DNA from: a virus
Lineage: Duplodnaviria > Heunggongvirae > Uroviricota > Caudoviricetes
Strand: one strand, 5' to 3'
Length of the DNA stretch: 47,928 nucleotides
IMG/VR virus record: IMGVR_UViG_2541047918_000003
The notes below the pieces were generated by a model, which saw only the letters and a list, made by a program, of their open reading frames with translations, did no database searches and was not told the DNA's origin. A program made the translations under genes and the position numbers. Below are positions 23,212-47,928 of this stretch, piece by piece (the first letter of the stretch is position 1; each line of letters opens with the position of its first letter).

Positions 23212-23679
23212 TTATCTGAGACATTGCTCACGAATGTATAGCTGTGCCCCTTCCAGTTGCTTCTGCATCGTCATCAACCGTTCTCTGAGGGTGAAATAAT
23301 CCCGTTCAGCGGTGTCTGCCAATCTGGGGCTGGTTGCATTATCCACGCTGGTGGGTCCGGTGGCTTCACGCACGGCTGCGGAGCAACTGGCATTGACCCG
23401 CAGGCGCTTACGACCAGCGGCAACATCAGCGCGCAGAGTTTCATTTTCAGCTTTCGCATTGGCTAATTCTCTCGAGTACTTTGCATCGAGCGCAGCAACA
23501 TCACGCTGACGCTGCTGCATGTCAGCGATGGTGGCGGTCAGCTGCTTCAGCTCACTGACTTTTTTATCACGCTGTTCTTTGTAGGTGATGGCGTTATCAC
23601 GGTAATGATTGACCGCCCACGACAGGCAGACGATGATGCAGATAACCAGAGCATAAATAATCGCGGCGACTCTGCTCAC
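23212..23679 (-). CDS. Rz: i-spanin Rz
   Basis: Lambda Rz-like ([25 protein letters not shown]...); GTG start overlapping the endolysin stop. Confidence 0.8.
23274..23459 (-). CDS. Rz1: o-spanin Rz1 lipoprotein, embedded in Rz in another frame
   Basis: 61 aa; lipobox LVVSAC; Pro-rich; lambda Rz1-like; entirely inside Rz. Confidence 0.75.
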
Positions 23680-40373: not shown

Positions 40374-40775
40374 GTGGAGGGTAACACCACGCTTTATGCC
40401 CTGCCGAAACCCGAGGTTGTCCTGCGCTGGCGTGAGCAGACCACAGATGACTTCCGCTTCTGTTTTAAGTTTCCGGCGACCATTTCGCATCAGGCAGCAT
40501 TACGGCATTGCGATGATTTAGTGACTGAATTTTTGACCCGCATGTCACCGTTGGCTCCGCGCATTGGACAATACTGGCTGCAACTGCCTGCCACATTCGG
40601 CCCACGGGAGCTGCCTGCGCTTTGGCATTTTCTCGATTCTCTTCCCGGTGAATTTAATTATGGGGTGGAAGTCCGCCATCCACAGTTTTTCGCCAAAGGG
40701 GAAGAGGAACAAACGCTTAATCGCGGTTTACATCAGCGCGGCGTTAATCGGGTGATTTTTATTAGACACGTTTAA
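40374..40775 (+). pseudogene. yecE: internal fragment of a DUF72-family host gene (yecE-like), truncated at both ends
   Basis: 133-aa ORF with a DUF72-like pattern (EGNTTLYALPKPEVVLRW...FRFCFKFPATISH...); frame is open upstream into the int 3' end; sequence diverges at about 40757. Confidence 0.6.
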
Positions 40776-40825
40776 ATACACCATCTAAAACGATACAATC
40801 TAGGGCATCAGTTTTGAGGTGAACA

Positions 40826-42349
40826 ATGAAACGTGCCATTTCTTACATCAGGTTTTCATCTGAGAAGCAATCCCGAGGTGATTCATTACGCCGACAGTCT
40901 AAGATGGTTAATGACTGGCTTAAGGCTCATCCTGAGTACTACCTTGACCAAGATTTATCTTTTCGTGATTTGGGGGTGAGTGGGTTCACTGGTAAGCACT
41001 TGAAAGGTGGCTTAGGTGACTTTTTAACCGCTATCGAGAAAGGGCTTGTTAAAGCTGGTGATACGCTCTTGATAGAATCTCTTGACCGTCTGTCACGTCA
41101 AGATGTAGACCAAGCAAGTGAGCTACTCAGAAACATTCTTCGCTCTGGTGTAGATGTGGTCACCTTGTCCGATGGTGAACATTACACAAAGGAAAGCTTA
41201 AAAGACCCGTTAGCTCTGATTAAAAGCATTTTGATAATGCAGCGGTCGCATGAGGAGAGTTTGCGTAAATCTGAACGTATCCAAGCTGCATGGGATGCAA
41301 AGAAAGAAGCTGCTAAAGCCGGTATCAAGATTTATAAGCGTTGTCCTGCATGGCTTAAGCTTAATGATGACCGTAAGACCTTCTCTGTGATACCTGAGAA
41401 GGTAGAAACTGTGAAGAGGTGCTTTCAATTACGGTTAGAGGGTAAGTCTATTTGGGAGATTGTCAGGACTCTTAATGATGAAGGTCACCAGACACTTAAC
41501 CAGTACAAAGCAGGTAAGTTTGGTCAAACCTCAGTGCAAGACCTTCTGAAAAATCGCTCTGTAATTGGTTACTTCACACCTAAAGGCTGTGAGGAGATAG
41601 CTGGTTATTTCCCCCCTATCATCCCTGAGACTGATTTCTACAAAGTCCAGCAACTATCATATTCTCGTTATGGAAGAAAGCCTGCTTCAGATAAACCATT
41701 GAGTGTGAATCTTTTCAAAGGTGTTATCCGTTGTTCTGAATGTGGTCATGCTTTGATTATCACAGGCTTTAGCGATACAAGAAACGGGATTTATCGTTGT
41801 CCTCTTCGTAATGAAAACCGTTGTAGTGCTAAAGGACTTTCACGTAAGCAAACCGATGGTACATTGCTTGCCCTGCTATCCCGTATAGACCGATTTGATA
41901 GCGATATGACGAATACCATAGACACACTGAAGCTACACCGTGAACACATCTCAAGCAATATTGAAAAGCTGGTACAGCTATCACTTGAAATTGAAGACTT
42001 GTCCGCTATTACCAGCAAACTAAAACAGTTAAAAGGTGAGCTATCACAGGTTGATGCGGATATCGAGAAGGAGACACAACGCCTTAAATCTATTGATGTT
42101 GGTTGTTTGTCTGATTGTGACTTGACTACAAAGGCGGGAAGGATTGAAGCACAACTGATAATCAAAAGTGCTGTTAAAGAGGTCATTTTAAATACTGCTA
42201 AACGTCGCTGTAAAGTAACTTTTCACAATAGTAAGTCAATCACCCTACCAATAACAGAAACCCCCTCAGAGGACGTTACAGAGGCTATACAGTCGCTTTC
42301 TGAAGTCACTGAGAGGGGGTTGATAGATGTTGATGAGGTTATCATATAG
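40826..42349 (+). CDS. large serine recombinase (integrase)
   Basis: 507 aa; N-terminal resolvase-type domain MKRAISYIRFSSEKQ; Cys-containing recombinase domain and coiled coil; GAGGTG RBS. Confidence 0.9.
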   Translation: MKRAISYIRFSSEKQSRGDSLRRQSKMVNDWLKAHPEYYLDQDLSFRDLGVSGFTGKHLKGGLGDFLTAIEKGLVKAGDTLLIESLDRLSRQDVDQASELLRNILRSGVDVVTLSDGEHYTKESLKDPLALIKSILIMQRSHEESLRKSERIQAAWDAKKEAAKAGIKIYKRCPAWLKLNDDRKTFSVIPEKVETVKRCFQLRLEGKSIWEIVRTLNDEGHQTLNQYKAGKFGQTSVQDLLKNRSVIGYFTPKGCEEIAGYFPPIIPETDFYKVQQLSYSRYGRKPASDKPLSVNLFKGVIRCSECGHALIITGFSDTRNGIYRCPLRNENRCSAKGLSRKQTDGTLLALLSRIDRFDSDMTNTIDTLKLHREHISSNIEKLVQLSLEIEDLSAITSKLKQLKGELSQVDADIEKETQRLKSIDVGCLSDCDLTTKAGRIEAQLIIKSAVKEVILNTAKRRCKVTFHNSKSITLPITETPSEDVTEAIQSLSEVTERGLIDVDEVII

Positions 42350-42363
42350 TTGAGATTCTATCG

Positions 42364-43137
42364 TCAGAATCGCTTGTTAGGATTCACAGAAAATTTCTTC
42401 AAAGTACTACCTGTACCAGCATTATTAAGCACCTTTGAAGCTTGCGCATTAGCGGCATCTGAGAAGGTGCTTTTTCCATTCTCAACTTTGACACTTTTAC
42501 CACAATTGATACGGGCTTGAAGTTGCTCATTAGTGAGTTCACTCGTAGAGCGATTATATAGCTCCTGACACAGCAACATACCATTACCTAGACTTGTCGT
42601 AGTGTTACCAGTGTTCTTCTTAGAAGTTGCACCACCATCATTCGTGGTAGCAGTCTTTCCAGTTGCAGCAGAAATATCAGTCTGACCAACAATAGCTTTG
42701 AAGTTAATTTCCTGAAAAGTTAGCTGGATTCTTAGACCGTTTGAAATCCCCACATCTTTAGAGGCTTTAAAACTCGTAATAATGGAATCGTCAATTTTAA
42801 TTCCGTCTTTACAGATGACCGAAATAATCTGTTTCTGGTCACGCCAGCTTTCAAGAGTGTCGATGAAGTTTTCTACTAATTGACCCTGACGAGTTAATAA
42901 TAAGCTTCCTTCATAGCCAACTACAACGACACCACTAATAGTGATTGTTCTGGGTGCTCTTTGCACATTATCTGTAACGGTTTGTCCTGATTGCATGTTC
43001 TGTGTAGTCACCTGCATAGGACTATCAAATTCCATGTTTTCAGTTGCTGATAAGGTTAAGAAGGCATCTACATTATCTCTTAAGTGGAAATAGATGCCGT
43101 CTTTGCCACTATATTTGATTTGGTTAGAGTAAATCAT
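42364..43137 (-). CDS. hypothetical protein downstream of the tape measure (possible distal tail protein)
   Basis: 257 aa from the ATG at 43137 with AAGGGGAA upstream; Ser/Thr/Asn-rich. Confidence 0.45.
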
Positions 43138-43211
43138 TAAATTCCCCTTTGATTTCAAAGGCTTAGTGTATTTTAATCATTTTTAACCAAGCCTTTGATA
43201 TATAAGTGTTT

Positions 43212-43288
43212 TCTCTGTTAAGCGTGTTGTACGTAAATTCTATTTTTCAGTGTGGGTATTAGCTTTACAGATTTCACGTAGCATTCGA
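43212..43288. repeat. copy A of a ~77-bp direct repeat
   Basis: Shares CTCTGTTAAGCGTG, TACGTAAA and AGATTTCACGTAGCA with copy B at 45357-45433. Confidence 0.6.
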
Positions 43289-43294
43289 CTATTA

Positions 43295-45343
43295 TCAATC
43301 ATCTTCTGGGAATGATGAACTTAATAGCGTAGCTTCTGCGTATTGGTCGTAGATATTACTGCTAAAGGTCATAAAGCTGGTTTCATCTGGTTTAATGGCA
43401 ACTTCACCACCAAGTGAAACTTTCACAGGCTCCTGAATACGTTTGCTCAAAGCACTAATTTCATCTCTCAGGCTTTGGATATCCGTATTCGTTAATGCCG
43501 CATCTTGTCTCATGGTGATTAATTCTGGATGCTGGAAGTTAGCAAGATTCATAGCTGCACTATTAAACCAACCTTTCACATCGTCCATAGTAAATACTGG
43601 CTTAAGTCCAGATTCTTTAGCTAACTCTGGTAATTTAGCTTGTGCTTCCATTCGTTCAGGTGTAGAGGCTAGTCTTTCATAACCTGCATAGAGAGCGCTA
43701 CCAGCTAATAGCATATTCCCAAGATTCAGTCTTGATGGTTTCCCATTCTTTCTATTCACGTTATCCGCTGTAGTATCAGCAACCTGACCTAATCTTGTGA
43801 TAGCAGTCATAAGCCCGTAAATACTTCTGGTTACACCAACAACTTTATTTACAGCAATAACACCAGCCAAGACTTTTAAACTATTAATCAAGCCAGAACC
43901 TAAAGCATCAACAACTTTCTTTTGTTCATCGGTTAAACCACGATAAGCTAATGTCACCTCATCAAAGAACGCTCGCACCTTGTAACTAATATCGGCCAGA
44001 CTATCGACACCATGTGACATATCAGTCATCAAGCTACCAAGAGATTCACCAAGACTTTTACCACTTCCACCAAGAGCGTTTAAAAGCGTTGTTAAGCTTC
44101 TTGTAAAATCTTGCAGACCACTTTCAGAACCTCTGAAGATACTATCAAGCGTGGTATTCCAAGAGTTTTTCAGGTTCCCTAATTGTGCCTGTGTACTTTC
44201 TGAAATAGCTTTCCAGCCACCTTTAGCGGTGATTTGTCTATTCAGTTCCTGAGTGACCTTCTGAAGAGTATCGGCAGATTTTAAAGCCCCCTTCTTCATG
44301 GCATCAAATAATTCCTGTTCAGTCTTTCCGGTTGCTTTAGCGAATACCTGAACCATACCAGGAACAGCTTCAGCTAGTTGCCCCTTAAGCTCTTCAGCCA
44401 TAACCTGACCCTTACCAGCCATCTGTGATAATGCTGTCAGTGCTCGCTTAATCTCTTCTTCACTTCGACCCATCAGACGAGAATAGCCAATCATACTTCT
44501 AAAAAGTTCTTCAGAACCTTGAATACCCATAGACTCTTTAGCTGAAGCACCGAAACCAGCAAACTGTGATTGCAGTTCAGCGATATCTAAACCCGTTGTT
44601 TGAGCTAATGACTTTGTGAACTCTTTTACCTGACCTGCATCTTTATCAAATACGAAATCAATTGAACGTTCAGCACTTGCACGCTGTAAACCAATTTCCA
44701 TTACTCGCTGATAAGCTGCCAAAGCACTTTGAAAAGTGTAAATAGCCGTACCCGCTTTAATTGCACTTGAAGCTAGTACATCTAAACCATTTGAAGCATT
44801 TTCACTGTGATTATTTTTGCTGGTGGTCTTGTTAAACTTAGAAAGTGTTTCACGTAGATTTTGATTTAACTTTGCTAACTCACGATTAAAAGCTTCGTTT
44901 CCAAGTGTCTTGGATTTACTACTTAATGCGTAAAACTGACTCTTAATGTATTTCTCGACAATTGGGTTAAGACCTTTCAGCTTAGACATATTCGCTGAAT
45001 AAGCCGCTGTGATTGCTCTGTTGCCGCTAATTCGTGGCTGTCTTGGCTGTCTAAGTGGCTTTAAAGTATCCTCAATTTCCGTTTTAATCTTAAACGCTCT
45101 AGTGTTTTTAAGACGCTGCTCAATCTTGTCAAAGGTCTTATTAAACTTCCTTTCAAGTTGCCCTAAAGAACTTGTCAGATTGCTGTCAAGTTGCTTGGTA
45201 TCGACCTTAAACGCTCTATTCAAATTACGTTCAATTCTTTGTGCTGACTGCAAAGCTGCCTTTTCAACTCTTTGCAAGCCCTTAATAACGTTCTCGCTGA
45301 AGCCTAGCTCAACGATAAAACTATCAACTTTAAATTGTGCCAT
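43295..45343 (-). CDS. phage tail tape measure-like protein
   Basis: 682 aa; central motif RALTALSQMAGKGQVMAEELKGQLAEAVPGMVQVFA; long coiled-coil segments; GAGGTGA RBS. Confidence 0.7.
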   Translation of the reverse strand: MAQFKVDSFIVELGFSENVIKGLQRVEKAALQSAQRIERNLNRAFKVDTKQLDSNLTSSLGQLERKFNKTFDKIEQRLKNTRAFKIKTEIEDTLKPLRQPRQPRISGNRAITAAYSANMSKLKGLNPIVEKYIKSQFYALSSKSKTLGNEAFNRELAKLNQNLRETLSKFNKTTSKNNHSENASNGLDVLASSAIKAGTAIYTFQSALAAYQRVMEIGLQRASAERSIDFVFDKDAGQVKEFTKSLAQTTGLDIAELQSQFAGFGASAKESMGIQGSEELFRSMIGYSRLMGRSEEEIKRALTALSQMAGKGQVMAEELKGQLAEAVPGMVQVFAKATGKTEQELFDAMKKGALKSADTLQKVTQELNRQITAKGGWKAISESTQAQLGNLKNSWNTTLDSIFRGSESGLQDFTRSLTTLLNALGGSGKSLGESLGSLMTDMSHGVDSLADISYKVRAFFDEVTLAYRGLTDEQKKVVDALGSGLINSLKVLAGVIAVNKVVGVTRSIYGLMTAITRLGQVADTTADNVNRKNGKPSRLNLGNMLLAGSALYAGYERLASTPERMEAQAKLPELAKESGLKPVFTMDDVKGWFNSAAMNLANFQHPELITMRQDAALTNTDIQSLRDEISALSKRIQEPVKVSLGGEVAIKPDETSFMTFSSNIYDQYAEATLLSSSFPEDD

Positions 45344-45356
45344 TGTTCATATTTCA

Positions 45357-45433
45357 CCTCTGTTAAGCGTGAGCTACGTAAAAAATAATTTTTGGTGGGT
45401 ATATCTGTTCAGAAGATTTCACGTAGCACACAT
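45357..45433. repeat. copy B of the ~77-bp direct repeat
   Basis: About 80 percent identical to copy A; lies in the leader region upstream of the tape measure gene. Confidence 0.6.
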
Positions 45434-45526
45434 ACAAAAAAGGGAGAAACTACCGAATAATATCGATAATCTCTCCCCGTGTTATAGATTCGATAGAACC
45501 TATCTCATACACCCAACCAATCTTTT

Positions 45527-45736
45527 TTAATGCCTGACAAGATAATGTAGTTCCGTTTCACCTATAATTTGAGCATCGGAAGGGATACGGTCGATACACC
45601 ACTTTGGAATCTTGCGTGTTTTTGGTTTGCGTGAGGTGATAATTTGATGTTTGGTTTTAATTCTTAAGGCTGGCTTAGTTTGTAACTTTAAGTTTTCACA
45701 AACAGACCGAATAGTCTCTAAACGTTCTTCAAACAT
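45527..45736 (-). CDS. hypothetical basic protein (69 aa)
   Basis: AAGAGGTGA RBS; Lys/Arg-rich. Confidence 0.45.
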   Translation of the reverse strand: MFEERLETIRSVCENLKLQTKPALRIKTKHQIITSRKPKTRKIPKWCIDRIPSDAQIIGETELHYLVRH

Positions 45737-45759
45737 TAATCACCTCTTTTAATTCATAA

Positions 45760-46467
45760 TCAAAGTGCTTTGCTGTATTTCTGAGAAATCTTCGTTAACT
45801 GCTCAATATCAGCCTGCATAGCAACCTTCTTCTGCGTTTCATAGTCACTAATAATCGCTTTCATGCTATCAAGTTCTTTTTTAAGCTTTTGCTTTAACTT
45901 ATCCAGTTTACCGGAATAATGCTTAGTCAAATTAGCTTCAGCTAACTGAAGAATCTCTTCATCTGTTTTATCACTCATCAGAATAAATTGACCAGAACCC
46001 CTTAATGCTTGTCTGACATCAATTAACCGGAACCCTTCAGGGATACTTTGAAGAACTTTAGGAACGTCTTCAATCGCTGTACCAAAACCATCATTAAAGT
46101 TTCCTTCATAATAGATAAACGGGTTTGACTTAATCTCGTAAGCAATATCATATTCTGAAGGTTTCGAGGTTTCTTCGAAGTTCTTAACCGCATCGTAAGC
46201 AATATCAAGTTTAATTCTTTGTGCTTTCAGTAGTGGGTAATATTCACGCTCAAGCTCAAGTAATGATTCAGTTTTGCATACATCAGGCATCTCTTGAGGT
46301 TCAGGAGTCACAAAGATGATTTCCTTTGGTGACATCTTTAACTCTTGCTCAAGTGCAATTCTTTCATCGTGCTCTTTGCGCTGAATAGCGATAGCTGGAT
46401 GTTCAGTCTGTGGTGACCAGTCACCGAAGCTATCAATCTTTTTACCGTTAATATATAGATTTTCCAT
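45760..46467 (-). CDS. hypothetical protein (235 aa)
   Basis: Start MENLYINGKK at the ATG at 46467 with GAGGAAAA upstream; coiled-coil C-terminus. Confidence 0.5.
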   Translation of the reverse strand: MENLYINGKKIDSFGDWSPQTEHPAIAIQRKEHDERIALEQELKMSPKEIIFVTPEPQEMPDVCKTESLLELEREYYPLLKAQRIKLDIAYDAVKNFEETSKPSEYDIAYEIKSNPFIYYEGNFNDGFGTAIEDVPKVLQSIPEGFRLIDVRQALRGSGQFILMSDKTDEEILQLAEANLTKHYSGKLDKLKQKLKKELDSMKAIISDYETQKKVAMQADIEQLTKISQKYSKAL

Positions 46468-46720
46468 TTCATTTTCCTCTTCTAAGTAATATTCAGTTTT
46501 TAAAAAGCACACCTGACAGCCTATCTAAACTTAGAAGAGACTTAAAAGGCGGTTTGCCAAGTATGCTTTTTAAAAGCTGAAAAAGCCCTAAACATAGGTG
46601 ATTCGGATATTCATGGAATCATCCTTATCTGTGAAGGGCTTTGGAGGTTTGCTTTATAACGTTAACGAAGTTTCAGGAAAAACTTTCTTTAAAAGTTCTG
46701 TTTAAAAACTCTTAAAGAAA

Positions 46721-46740
46721 GCCCTAATCATGATTAGGGC
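46721..46740. promoter_or_regulatory. 20-bp perfect palindrome, candidate operator
   Basis: GCCCTAATCATGATTAGGGC; the AGCCCTAA half-motif recurs at about 46585, 47006 and 47413. Confidence 0.45.
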
Positions 46741-46962
46741 AAAGCTGTAAAGGGTTCAATGAATGAATGATTAAGCACTTTTCGAGATGACCTCTCAGGT
46801 TATATAAGAGGCCATGTAGCGAAAAGCATTGCACCTTTCAGAATAACTATCCCTAGATGTAGATGGAATTGTTGAAAGAAATAAGAGAGCAATTCTCTCT
46901 ATAATTAAAATTATGTCATGCTTAAGGTTATTTGTCAACAGCTTTTTAACAGATTGGTAACA

Positions 46963-47040
46963 TTAATTCTTATTTACCGTATTACCTACCCAGCAACCAA
47001 CAAATAGCCCTAAAACCGTCCAGAGAATAACGAGTGTCAT
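46963..47040 (-). CDS. candidate 25-aa hydrophobic peptide
   Basis: MTLVILWTVLGLFVGCWVGNTVNKN; its ATG overlaps the stop of the upstream gene (TAATG). Confidence 0.25.
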   Translation of the reverse strand: MTLVILWTVLGLFVGCWVGNTVNKN

Positions 47041-47345
47041 TACATCACCTCACTGTAAGGGTTTAATTCATTCTGATAGGTCAAGAATACATTCAGCTTC
47101 AATAATTGCTCCGGGCTTAAATCAAGTCGGTTGCATTCGCTTGTGATAAATCTCTTGTAGTCTGGGTCTGTTACTTCCAGTTTATGAACAAAGTCACCAA
47201 GTTTAATTTCGTTGATTATATGCTTGTCAATATACGTTGACGCTTCAAAACAATGCATGAAATAGATATTAAAGCCCGACCTGTTCAGGTCATTAAGCCA
47301 ATTCATAGTTTCTTGGTCAACCATAACTTGCATTGAATAATTCAT
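47040..47345 (-). CDS. hypothetical protein (101 aa)
   Basis: AT-rich ORF; no family recognised. Confidence 0.4.
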   Translation of the reverse strand: MNYSMQVMVDQETMNWLNDLNRSGFNIYFMHCFEASTYIDKHIINEIKLGDFVHKLEVTDPDYKRFITSECNRLDLSPEQLLKLNVFLTYQNELNPYSEVM

Positions 47346-47491
47346 TTTTAAAATCCTTCCTGTATCGCATTCTAAGACGTTTTAACCCCTTTTTTAGACC
47401 ACTTAAGGCGATTCCCTAAGTTACCCTGATTAGGGGCTTAAAATCGCTTAGAATTCGTCTGGTAAAGCCTGAGAGATATGTTTTACTGTTT

Positions 47492-47707
47492 TTAGCTCAA
47501 GTCTGAGACTAATAGCCCCATCTGGTGACCGTAGTCTTTTAACCAGCTTTGCTTAACCGGAGCCTTCAGAGAATAGTTAGGGGCTGACAAGTGAAGATAG
47601 ATATCATCTTTGCCGTGGATGCTTCCCCATCCTTCGTATAACTCAAGCAAGTTTTCAAAATAACGAAATGCTTTATTAGTCTGAAGTTGTACTGTGATAG
47701 TTTTCAT
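47492..47707 (-). CDS. hypothetical protein (about 71 aa)
   Basis: ATG at 47707 overlaps the upstream stop; the track ORF starts 12 nt further upstream. Confidence 0.4.
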   Translation of the reverse strand: MKTITVQLQTNKAFRYFENLLELYEGWGSIHGKDDIYLHLSAPNYSLKAPVKQSWLKDYGHQMGLLVSDLS

Positions 47708-47928
47708 CAAGCACCCCATTCAGAAATAAGCTTAATTCCCTGCTCAAGCTGTTCAGGGTCGTTATAGTCGAGTATTACCAGTGGCTTTAATTCGTGTTTA
47801 AGCTGGTGGATTTGAGAGGGTTTTAATCGTTTGTTTGCTTTGAGGGTCACATCTTCAAATTCAGCATCTGCTAAATTCTGTCTGATTAGGTGGCTGCCAA
47901 GTGTGGAATATTGGAACCTGTAACACAT
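47707..47928 (-). CDS. hypothetical protein, possibly truncated at the window edge
   Basis: ORF runs to the last base of the window. Confidence 0.35.
   Translation of the reverse strand: MCYRFQYSTLGSHLIRQNLADAEFEDVTLKANKRLKPSQIHQLKHELKPLVILDYNDPEQLEQGIKLISEWGA

Follow-up and report, generated by a model that had tools for sequence, protein, structure and literature searches.

The 47,928-nt stretch of viral DNA analysed here (IMG/VR record IMGVR_UViG_2541047918_000003; the window) carries near its right end part of an island in which a non-coding gap is flanked by genes that all lie on the minus strand, and we find that RNA read from this gap would have a conserved, strand-specific secondary structure with compensatory changes. 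We consider it probable that the gap is a transcriptional and translational gate working mainly through RNA made from the minus strand, and the 20-bp perfect palindrome GCCCTAATCATGATTAGGGC at 46721-46740 is most likely the stem of an RNA hairpin or terminator within a highly folded leader. An initial annotation had taken the region to look like the genetic switch of the element, built on this palindrome, on related half-sites and on a repressor missing from the window; what holds is a conserved control region with the best promoter match of the island, while the logic of operator, half-site and absent repressor is unsupported. Its borders (46513-47040) also shift: the left one stems from a mechanical open reading frame starting at GTG 46512, whereas ATG 46467 is the start codon used in homologues and by PGAP, which leaves 46468-46962 as the corrected stretch. 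It is indeed the largest stretch free of open reading frames within the window, though not island-wide, as the right end of the island has about 1.1 kb of non-coding DNA.

A pattern search with the promoter block found 10 IMG/VR loci and 79 metagenome loci, and these, pooled with E. coli loci and loci anchored on a neighbouring protein, gave 78 distinct leaders. In 78/78 the sense strand folds more stably than the antisense strand, with a mean difference of 23.8 kcal/mol; in the window, minus-strand RNA running from near 46902 up to the ATG (the leader, about 435 nt) reaches -139.5 kcal/mol (z = -8.5), against z = -4.1 for the plus strand. The structure named below is paired in 88.7% of cells compared with 35-58% when the partners are slid, and its covariation score of 0.167 exceeds the 0.120 of shuffled alignments and is reached by 0/500 shuffles. 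Cells with double changes number 240 versus 97 in shuffles. The elements of the gap and its upstream edge are, in the direction of transcription:

46963-47040, minus strand: gene for a 25-amino-acid hydrophobic peptide (MTLVILWTVLGLFVGCWVGNTVNKN), coupled to the 101-amino-acid gene through TAATG
46939-46962, minus strand: nearly invariant A/T-rich block TGTTACCAATCTGTTAAAAAGC, upstream of the -35
46910-46938, minus strand: sigma-70 promoter match, TTGACA-17-TGnCATAAT
46884-46900, minus strand: hp1, 5'-terminal hairpin AGAGAG-AAUUG-CUCUCU
46777-46839, minus strand: hp2 domain, invariant GAAAGGUGCAAUGCUUUUCG followed by a covarying hairpin AUGGCCUCU...AGAGGUCAU
46711-46740, minus strand: hp3 or T1, the palindrome as an RNA hairpin GCCCUAAU-CAUG-AUUAGGGC with the U-tract UUUCUUUAAG (terminator scan)
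46683-46721, minus strand: hp4, A/U-rich hairpin CUUUCUUUAAGAG...CUUUUAAAGAAAG re-using the T1 U-tract (inverted repeat I9, minimum-free-energy fold)
46572-46642, minus strand: hp6 or T2, hairpin AAAGCCCU...AGGGCUUU with variable interior, then UUCAGCUUUU; second terminator-like element
46492-46581, minus strand: hp7, long nearly perfect hairpin of about 35 bp, with an anti-Shine-Dalgarno sequence CUCUUCUAAGU in its apical loop (46539-46529)
46465-46487, minus strand: ribosome-binding region ACUUAGAAGAGGAAAAUGAAAUG of the 235-amino-acid gene, complementary to the hp7 loop

The second line of evidence comes from the end of the leader. Hairpin hp7 occurs in three allelic versions that share the same fold (-30 to -36 kcal/mol), and ten of its pairs have changes on both sides. 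In all three allelic types the apical loop is predicted to form a duplex of 9-11 bp with the Shine-Dalgarno sequence of the next gene, at -19 to -22 kcal/mol, with CUCUUCUAAGU matching ACUUAGAAGAG and, in the type C allele, a different Shine-Dalgarno sequence AGAGGUGAA matching an equally different loop UUCACCUCU. Complementarity of the two partners is thus kept across three alleles, which argues that the RNA is tied in cis to the downstream gene and is at least also a leader.

At the upstream edge, the promoter block lies directly 3' of the peptide stop codon. It comprises a -35 TTGACA (46938-46933), a 17-nt spacer, a TG at 46918-46917 and a -10 CATAAT (46915-46910), matching at 11/12 positions plus the extended -10 TG, and is the top match of both the region and the whole island. 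The -35 does not vary among 11 relatives anchored on the protein, 10 of which also keep the -10, and transcription is predicted to start near A46902. We found no plus-strand promoter in the gap. The TATAAT hexamer singled out in the initial annotation is present on the plus strand at 46900-46905, but has no usable -35 and overlies the start region of the minus-strand promoter. With regard to a promoter-proximal pause dependent on sigma-70, as in Q-type cassettes, the sequence offers only hexamers resembling a -10, TGTATA and TATAGG, downstream of the -10. A candidate T7-type promoter at the leader start, TATAGGGAGA, was rejected for a mismatched upstream specificity region. Upstream of the -35, the A/T-rich block has TGTTA/TGTTG repeats each 11 bp and is conserved in the 11 loci that were retrieved with the neighbouring protein and not with the promoter; judging from its sequence it may serve as an UP-like element or bind a regulator. 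The peptide gene itself was correctly recognised, its ATG overlapping the TAA of the upstream 101-amino-acid gene. It is intact in 76/78 distinct relatives, with up to 7 different nucleotide sequences encoding the same peptide and two allelic families; a 21-amino-acid allele occurs, and this conserved single-helix product could be a membrane peptide or toxin-like.

Within the leader, the AGAGAG-CAATT-CTCTCT repeat is present at 46884-46900 as first described, and corresponds on the minus strand to hp1. Here 23/23 sequence variants fold to a hairpin through swaps of G-C to A-U and G-U pairs, and one variant, GGAAGAG/UUUUUCC, contains G-U pairs and hence is not palindromic as DNA. The hp2 domain is the most conserved part of the leader and includes an invariant 20-nt stretch, and it is a candidate recognition site; the pairs of its inner stem alternate between GC, GU and AU (RNAalifold), a CCUAU/AUAGG variant stands in place of CCUCU/AGAGG, and a covariance model of the domain (R1) scores 92 bits at this site only. 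A leader peptide from the invariant AUG in hp2 was considered and rejected, its frame and length varying between alleles.

The palindrome, correctly reported at 46721-46740, is the sole perfect one of 14-20 bp in the window, and the chance expectation for one of 20 bp, from block-wise, composition-preserving shuffles, is 0.035 per window. Read as RNA it is hp3, an 8-bp stem with a 4-nt loop and a following U-tract, as an intrinsic terminator has. The stem is paired in 99.8% of cells, and its changes are one-sided, to G-U, so that they pair on the sense RNA only; the palindrome is perfect in a minority of relatives, most having a loop asymmetric by 1 nt. Hairpin hp6 is likewise terminator-like, with a conserved 8-bp stem base and a U-tract around a large or branched interior that is deleted or expanded in relatives, and its stem base shows one CG-to-UA double change in 19 sequences. 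A U-rich tract lies 3' of every hp3 and hp6 variant. Two loci (L054 and L063) carry hp6 inverted in place, as an exact reverse complement with the structure kept, and other leaders have hairpin insertions of 28-29 nt, one directly after the -10 and one before hp2.

Three further half-sites had been ascribed to the gap. Exact AGCCCTAA occurs at 46584, 46720 and 47006, but the copy at 46720 is the palindrome's own half; a fourth copy at 46635-46642 is imperfect and inverted, two of the half-sites are carried by hp6, and that at 47006 is coding sequence of the peptide gene, where it encodes L-G-L. Three exact copies in the window compare with 1.09 expected, a count that 8/100 shuffles reach and that is not significant on its own. 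Apart from the copy in coding sequence, the palindrome and its half-sites are therefore most likely arms of the hp3 and hp6 hairpins.

Rfam holds no family matching this RNA, whether the gap alone (621 nt, E up to 10) or the 7.2-kb island part (E up to 1) was searched, the matches seen being at chance level and far under family thresholds. Three further candidates were set aside: an attenuator with alternative pairing of the hp3 3' arm and hp6 5' arm, which an extra G in many relatives disturbs; a boxA-like CUUUCAACAAUU, not kept between alleles; and a boxB-like GCCCU/AGGGC stem, whose loop differs.

Downstream of the gap lie the genes that such a leader would control, with a third terminator-like hairpin among them:

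45760-46467, minus strand: first gene behind the putative gate, 235 amino acids, named 'transposase' in many GenBank and RefSeq records without support
45431-45478, minus strand: T3, strong intrinsic-terminator-like hairpin with a 15-16 bp stem and UUUUUU, between the 69-amino-acid and tape-measure genes (scan)
42364-45343, minus strand: distal operon genes, tape measure (43295-45343, Pfam TMP_3) and Dit-like tail or baseplate protein (42364-43137, Pfam Dit_like)

The 235-amino-acid protein has no match in Pfam, PHROGs, NCBIfam, PADLOC or PDB, transposase families included, and its AlphaFold model is of low confidence (pLDDT 64), consists mostly of long helices and is too poor for a structure search. 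T3, whose hairpin lies at 45478-45441, is conserved in loci L001-L004 and a strict pattern finds it in 44/72 relatives; a hairpin akin to it also stands ahead of the replication gene (L001 27551-27523).

We propose that the strong sigma-70 promoter at 46938-46910 would start a leader of about 435 nt that opens with a protective 5' hairpin and the conserved two-hairpin domain, after which polymerase would meet T1 (46740-46721) and T2 (AAAGCCCU/AGGGCUUU, 46642-46582), so that most transcripts would stop early and be only about 190 or 330 nt long. In transcripts that read through, the hp7 loop would pair with the Shine-Dalgarno sequence of the 235-amino-acid gene and keep its translation low, and T3 would act as a third terminator ahead of the tape-measure gene. 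A near-consensus promoter followed by three terminators in series before virion-type genes implies an antitermination or RNA-remodelling input, and expression of the full tail-module operon (235 amino acids, 69 amino acids, tape measure, Dit-like) would require such a signal, probably linked to infection by a FelixO1-like helper phage. Cutting of hp7 by RNase III, detaching the anti-Shine-Dalgarno loop, is a plausible extra step.

Several points weigh against this proposal. The start site, the 3' ends and the efficiency of the terminators are all predictions, and neither the island, as searched with Pfam, PHROG and NCBIfam, nor the phage yielded an antiterminator or trigger. The -10 is weaker in 7/78 leaders, the T1 hairpin is absent in 19/78 and the T1 U-tract is interrupted (UUUCUUU). 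No terminator separates the peptide gene from the promoter, and therefore transcription of the upstream operon can also enter the leader. As to the comparative test, the promoter sequence was itself the bait with which leaders were collected; these come from few recombining lineages, so that the double changes represent few independent events, and because the structure examined was built on the window sequence itself, the comparison with slid partners is biased in its favour.

The same promoter and structured RNA could instead belong to a stand-alone small RNA of about 190 nt, ending at the palindrome hairpin, or about 330 nt, ending at hp6, that acts in trans on host, island or helper-phage messages, with read-through incidental. 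A strong promoter directly upstream of a compact, conserved, structured RNA ending in a hairpin and U-tract is what such a molecule would look like, the invariant 20-nt stretch of hp2 fits it as well, and short terminated leaders of phage late promoters can double as regulatory RNAs; the idea is compatible with a leader. As the main explanation we nevertheless think it rather unlikely: the covariation of the Shine-Dalgarno sequence with its loop links the RNA in cis to the downstream gene, the genome of the Felixounavirus phage VpaE1 gave no convincing complementary target beyond chance-level 11-12-mers, and the Rfam searches above were negative.

The length of hp7, a near-perfect duplex of about 35 bp, is typical of an RNase III substrate, which raises the question of whether the hairpins are constitutive processing or insulation devices (RNase III-type sites, stabilisers of mRNA, leaky terminators) that set fixed ratios and switch nothing, like those between genes of T7-like phages. 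A similar long hairpin in the next intergenic region (47366-47457), and the gain, loss or inversion of hairpin modules between relatives, would agree with this. Three serial terminator-like sites would, however, nearly silence the distal genes unless overridden, and the kept complementarity to the Shine-Dalgarno sequence suggests regulated rather than fixed access, and we hold this reading to be improbable.

As for the palindrome and the AGCCCTAA half-sites serving as duplex-DNA operators for a dimeric repressor, as the initial annotation supposed, the low chance expectation for such a palindrome, the conservation of the region and the invariant block upstream of the -35, which could bind a protein, speak for it. 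The palindrome, however, does not overlap the only good promoter but sits about 165-180 nt downstream of it, its symmetry is broken by the 1-nt loop differences in most relatives and its hairpin lost in the 19 leaders mentioned above, its variants form G-U pairs on one strand only, and the half-sites include coding sequence in a count that is not significant. Divergent promoters are absent from the gap, and the search for a regulator gene nearby, which had been suggested as a check, gave no DNA-binding domain match among the neighbouring proteins. We thus regard a conserved operator here as very unlikely. A better candidate for a protein-based switch stands just past the window end (L001 25920-26056), where divergent promoter-like sites, leftward TTGACA-17-TGnTAAGAT (10/12) and rightward TTGTCA-17-TAATAT, lie between a 96-amino-acid minus-strand gene and a lone 61-amino-acid plus-strand gene, neither of whose proteins has a domain match. 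Finally, a role of the gap as DNA, either as a packaging site (cos/pac) or as an origin of replication, with its palindromes read as DNA or cruciforms, is hardly credible. In its favour are the size, conservation and non-coding nature of the region, its many inverted repeats, and an HNH endonuclease gene about 0.5-1 kb upstream in some relatives. Against it, the gap has no similarity to a FelixO1-like phage genome (non-coding similarities being confined to the right end of the island) and no iterons, about 2 kb separate it from the replication-initiator-like gene, and the strand-asymmetric G-U pairing and greater stability of the sense strand favour RNA.

The RNA-level gate that we favour is set in a small island that is apparently undescribed. 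The window is 99.9% identical to the chromosome of E. coli JNEC-KY173; positions 1 to about 40350 are a lambdoid prophage, and in tandem with it, inserted in yecE, lies a separate island of about 11.2 kb, which had been called the second element. The island spans window 40757-47928 and continues to L001 29655, the window end at 47928 cutting it off, and its remainder was read from locus L001. Its order is a large serine recombinase (plus strand), then the Dit-like, tape-measure, 69-amino-acid and 235-amino-acid genes (all minus strand), the gap, and beyond it, all on the minus strand, the 25-amino-acid peptide, the 101-amino-acid reading frame, small open reading frames, a replication-initiator-like protein and Dam, with the large non-coding right end outside the window. 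The small proteins of the island have no matches in Pfam, PHROGs or NCBIfam, and the 101-amino-acid protein has no family or PDB match. Upstream of the 101-amino-acid gene the intergenic inverted repeat at 47366-47457 (24-nt arms, 79% complementary) includes AAGCCCCUAAUCAGGG, which is similar to the palindrome hairpin, and TTAGGGGCT is repeated at 47430 and 47577.

The same architecture is found in other strains at yecE and at the tonB-yciI site. DNA matching this island part occurs in 482/5426 complete E. coli genomes (about 9%), at no fewer than two integration sites (at least 2), and the gap itself is matched in 478/5426; phage and plasmid collections hold no close DNA relatives of the region, which was found in chromosomal E. 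coli DNA only. Ten metagenome contigs (L023, L032, L039, L044, L061, L065, L068, L084, L091 and L092) are nearly island-sized, at 11.4-12.2 kb, with the promoter where an end-to-end copy would put it. None of these contigs has a terminal overlap indicative of a circular form, and breaks in the assembly where the island ends are thus a likelier explanation than circular or packaged DNA.

A link to virulent myophages comes from the distal genes. The Dit-like protein is matched by 301 phage records and is 83% identical to the protein encoded next after the tape measure in virulent Felixounavirus myophages, and its DNA is 93% identical over 544 nt to that of phage VpaE1; between the tape measure proteins of island and phage the identity is only 29%. 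Similarity between non-coding island DNA and VpaE1 is limited to two short stretches at the right end of the island and does not include the gap. Of these stretches (L001 28596-28653 and 28689-28729), one is 88% identical to the divergent intergenic region 23361-23416 of VpaE1, which has a GATATC...GATATC hairpin, and the other is 83% identical to a large VpaE1 non-coding region near 14.7 kb; these matches may be shared regulatory or packaging signals. Several promoter-like sites of VpaE1 share with the gap the 'TAAAAAGnTGTTGACA' promoter style, and a short-word blastn of the gap against VpaE1 gave chance-level 11-17-mers only, bar the generic promoter style AAAAAGnTGTTGACA. The R1 model of hp2 has no match in the VpaE1 genome. 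The 8-mer CTTAAAAG/CTTTTAAG is present there in 38 copies against 5.6 expected (about 7-fold), clustered in non-coding regions, and in the island in 5 copies against 0.8 expected, one of them in the hp7 apex (window 46541) and two in the phage-like right end.

With a serine recombinase, a replication-initiator-like gene, Dam, and tape-measure and Dit-like genes but no capsid or terminase, the island fits the gene content of phage satellites, and on these grounds it is a candidate satellite or tail-interference island. We found no description in the literature of a Felixounavirus-linked satellite or of this yecE island, and the island is a more novel object than the gap. One may then speculate, and we do so with considerable doubt, that the leader is the infection sensor of a hitherto unrecognised island that acts on virulent FelixO1-like coliphages as a satellite or as an anti-phage element. 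A helper factor, or transcription machinery changed by the helper, would override the three terminators and open the sequestered ribosome-binding site. Synthesis of the island's tape-measure and baseplate-hub-type proteins would thereby be restricted to infected cells, where they would build or re-size hijacked tails or poison tail assembly of the helper.

These observations have some more general implications. The gap illustrates how a motif that looks like an operator in raw sequence may turn out to be an RNA terminator stem, and it adds a conserved leader RNA outside all Rfam families in which tandem terminator-like hairpins are combined with a covarying anti-Shine-Dalgarno loop, a compact and testable model for gating the expression of virion genes. 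The island context could matter more than the gap itself, considering its presence in about 9% of complete E. coli genomes and its near-identical DNA with virulent Felixounavirus phages. Should the island be a satellite, or defend against FelixO1-like phages by interfering with their tails, the control region would be a helper-sensing readout, with a bearing on phage therapy cocktails that use Felixounaviruses.

Among known systems, the island context (and this alone) recalls PLE, the Vibrio cholerae satellite of the virulent myophage ICP1 (PMC8096241): in both cases a small integrative island encodes a large serine recombinase and a replication gene of its own but lacks capsid and terminase genes. 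Both have a sequence link to a virulent myophage; no PLE proteins are shared, and, unlike PLE, our island carries helper-type tail genes (the tape measure and the next gene).

The gap itself most resembles other leaders in parts. Similar to the lambdoid PR'/6S leader/tR'/Q arrangement, a near-consensus promoter is followed about 190 nt on by an intrinsic-type terminator, and by more terminators in a virion-gene operon. It differs in that Pfam, PHROGs and NCBIfam reveal no Q-family protein among the island proteins, where a helper-supplied factor is possible, in that it adds sequestration of the Shine-Dalgarno sequence, and in that it has no similarity to the PR' region or late region of the adjacent prophage, on which ground we also rejected the idea that the gap mimics the late region of its lambdoid neighbour. 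In the c4 immunity RNA of P1 and P7 and the CI immunity RNA of P4, the loops of hairpins cut out of a leader base-pair with sites farther downstream, a ribosome-binding site among them. As in these, a hairpin loop of our leader is complementary to the ribosome-binding region of the next gene on the same transcript, and the leader also holds premature terminators; in contrast, the partners here lie about 45 nt apart in cis, and the Rfam C4 model gives no match. A long, conserved, structured 5' leader between promoter and terminators is shared with attenuators, riboswitch-type leaders and the RNA elements of processive antitermination (HK022 put, EAR), though the gap has neither the conserved leader peptide of attenuators nor a match to a ligand-binding family, and it is unlike the OR/OL switch of lambda in that its palindrome neither keeps its symmetry as duplex DNA nor overlaps a promoter. 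With no Q protein and no C4 model match, membership in the Q-type or C4 families fails; by analogy, the element would work like a late-operon antitermination leader joined to a c4/CI-style loop directed against the ribosome-binding site.

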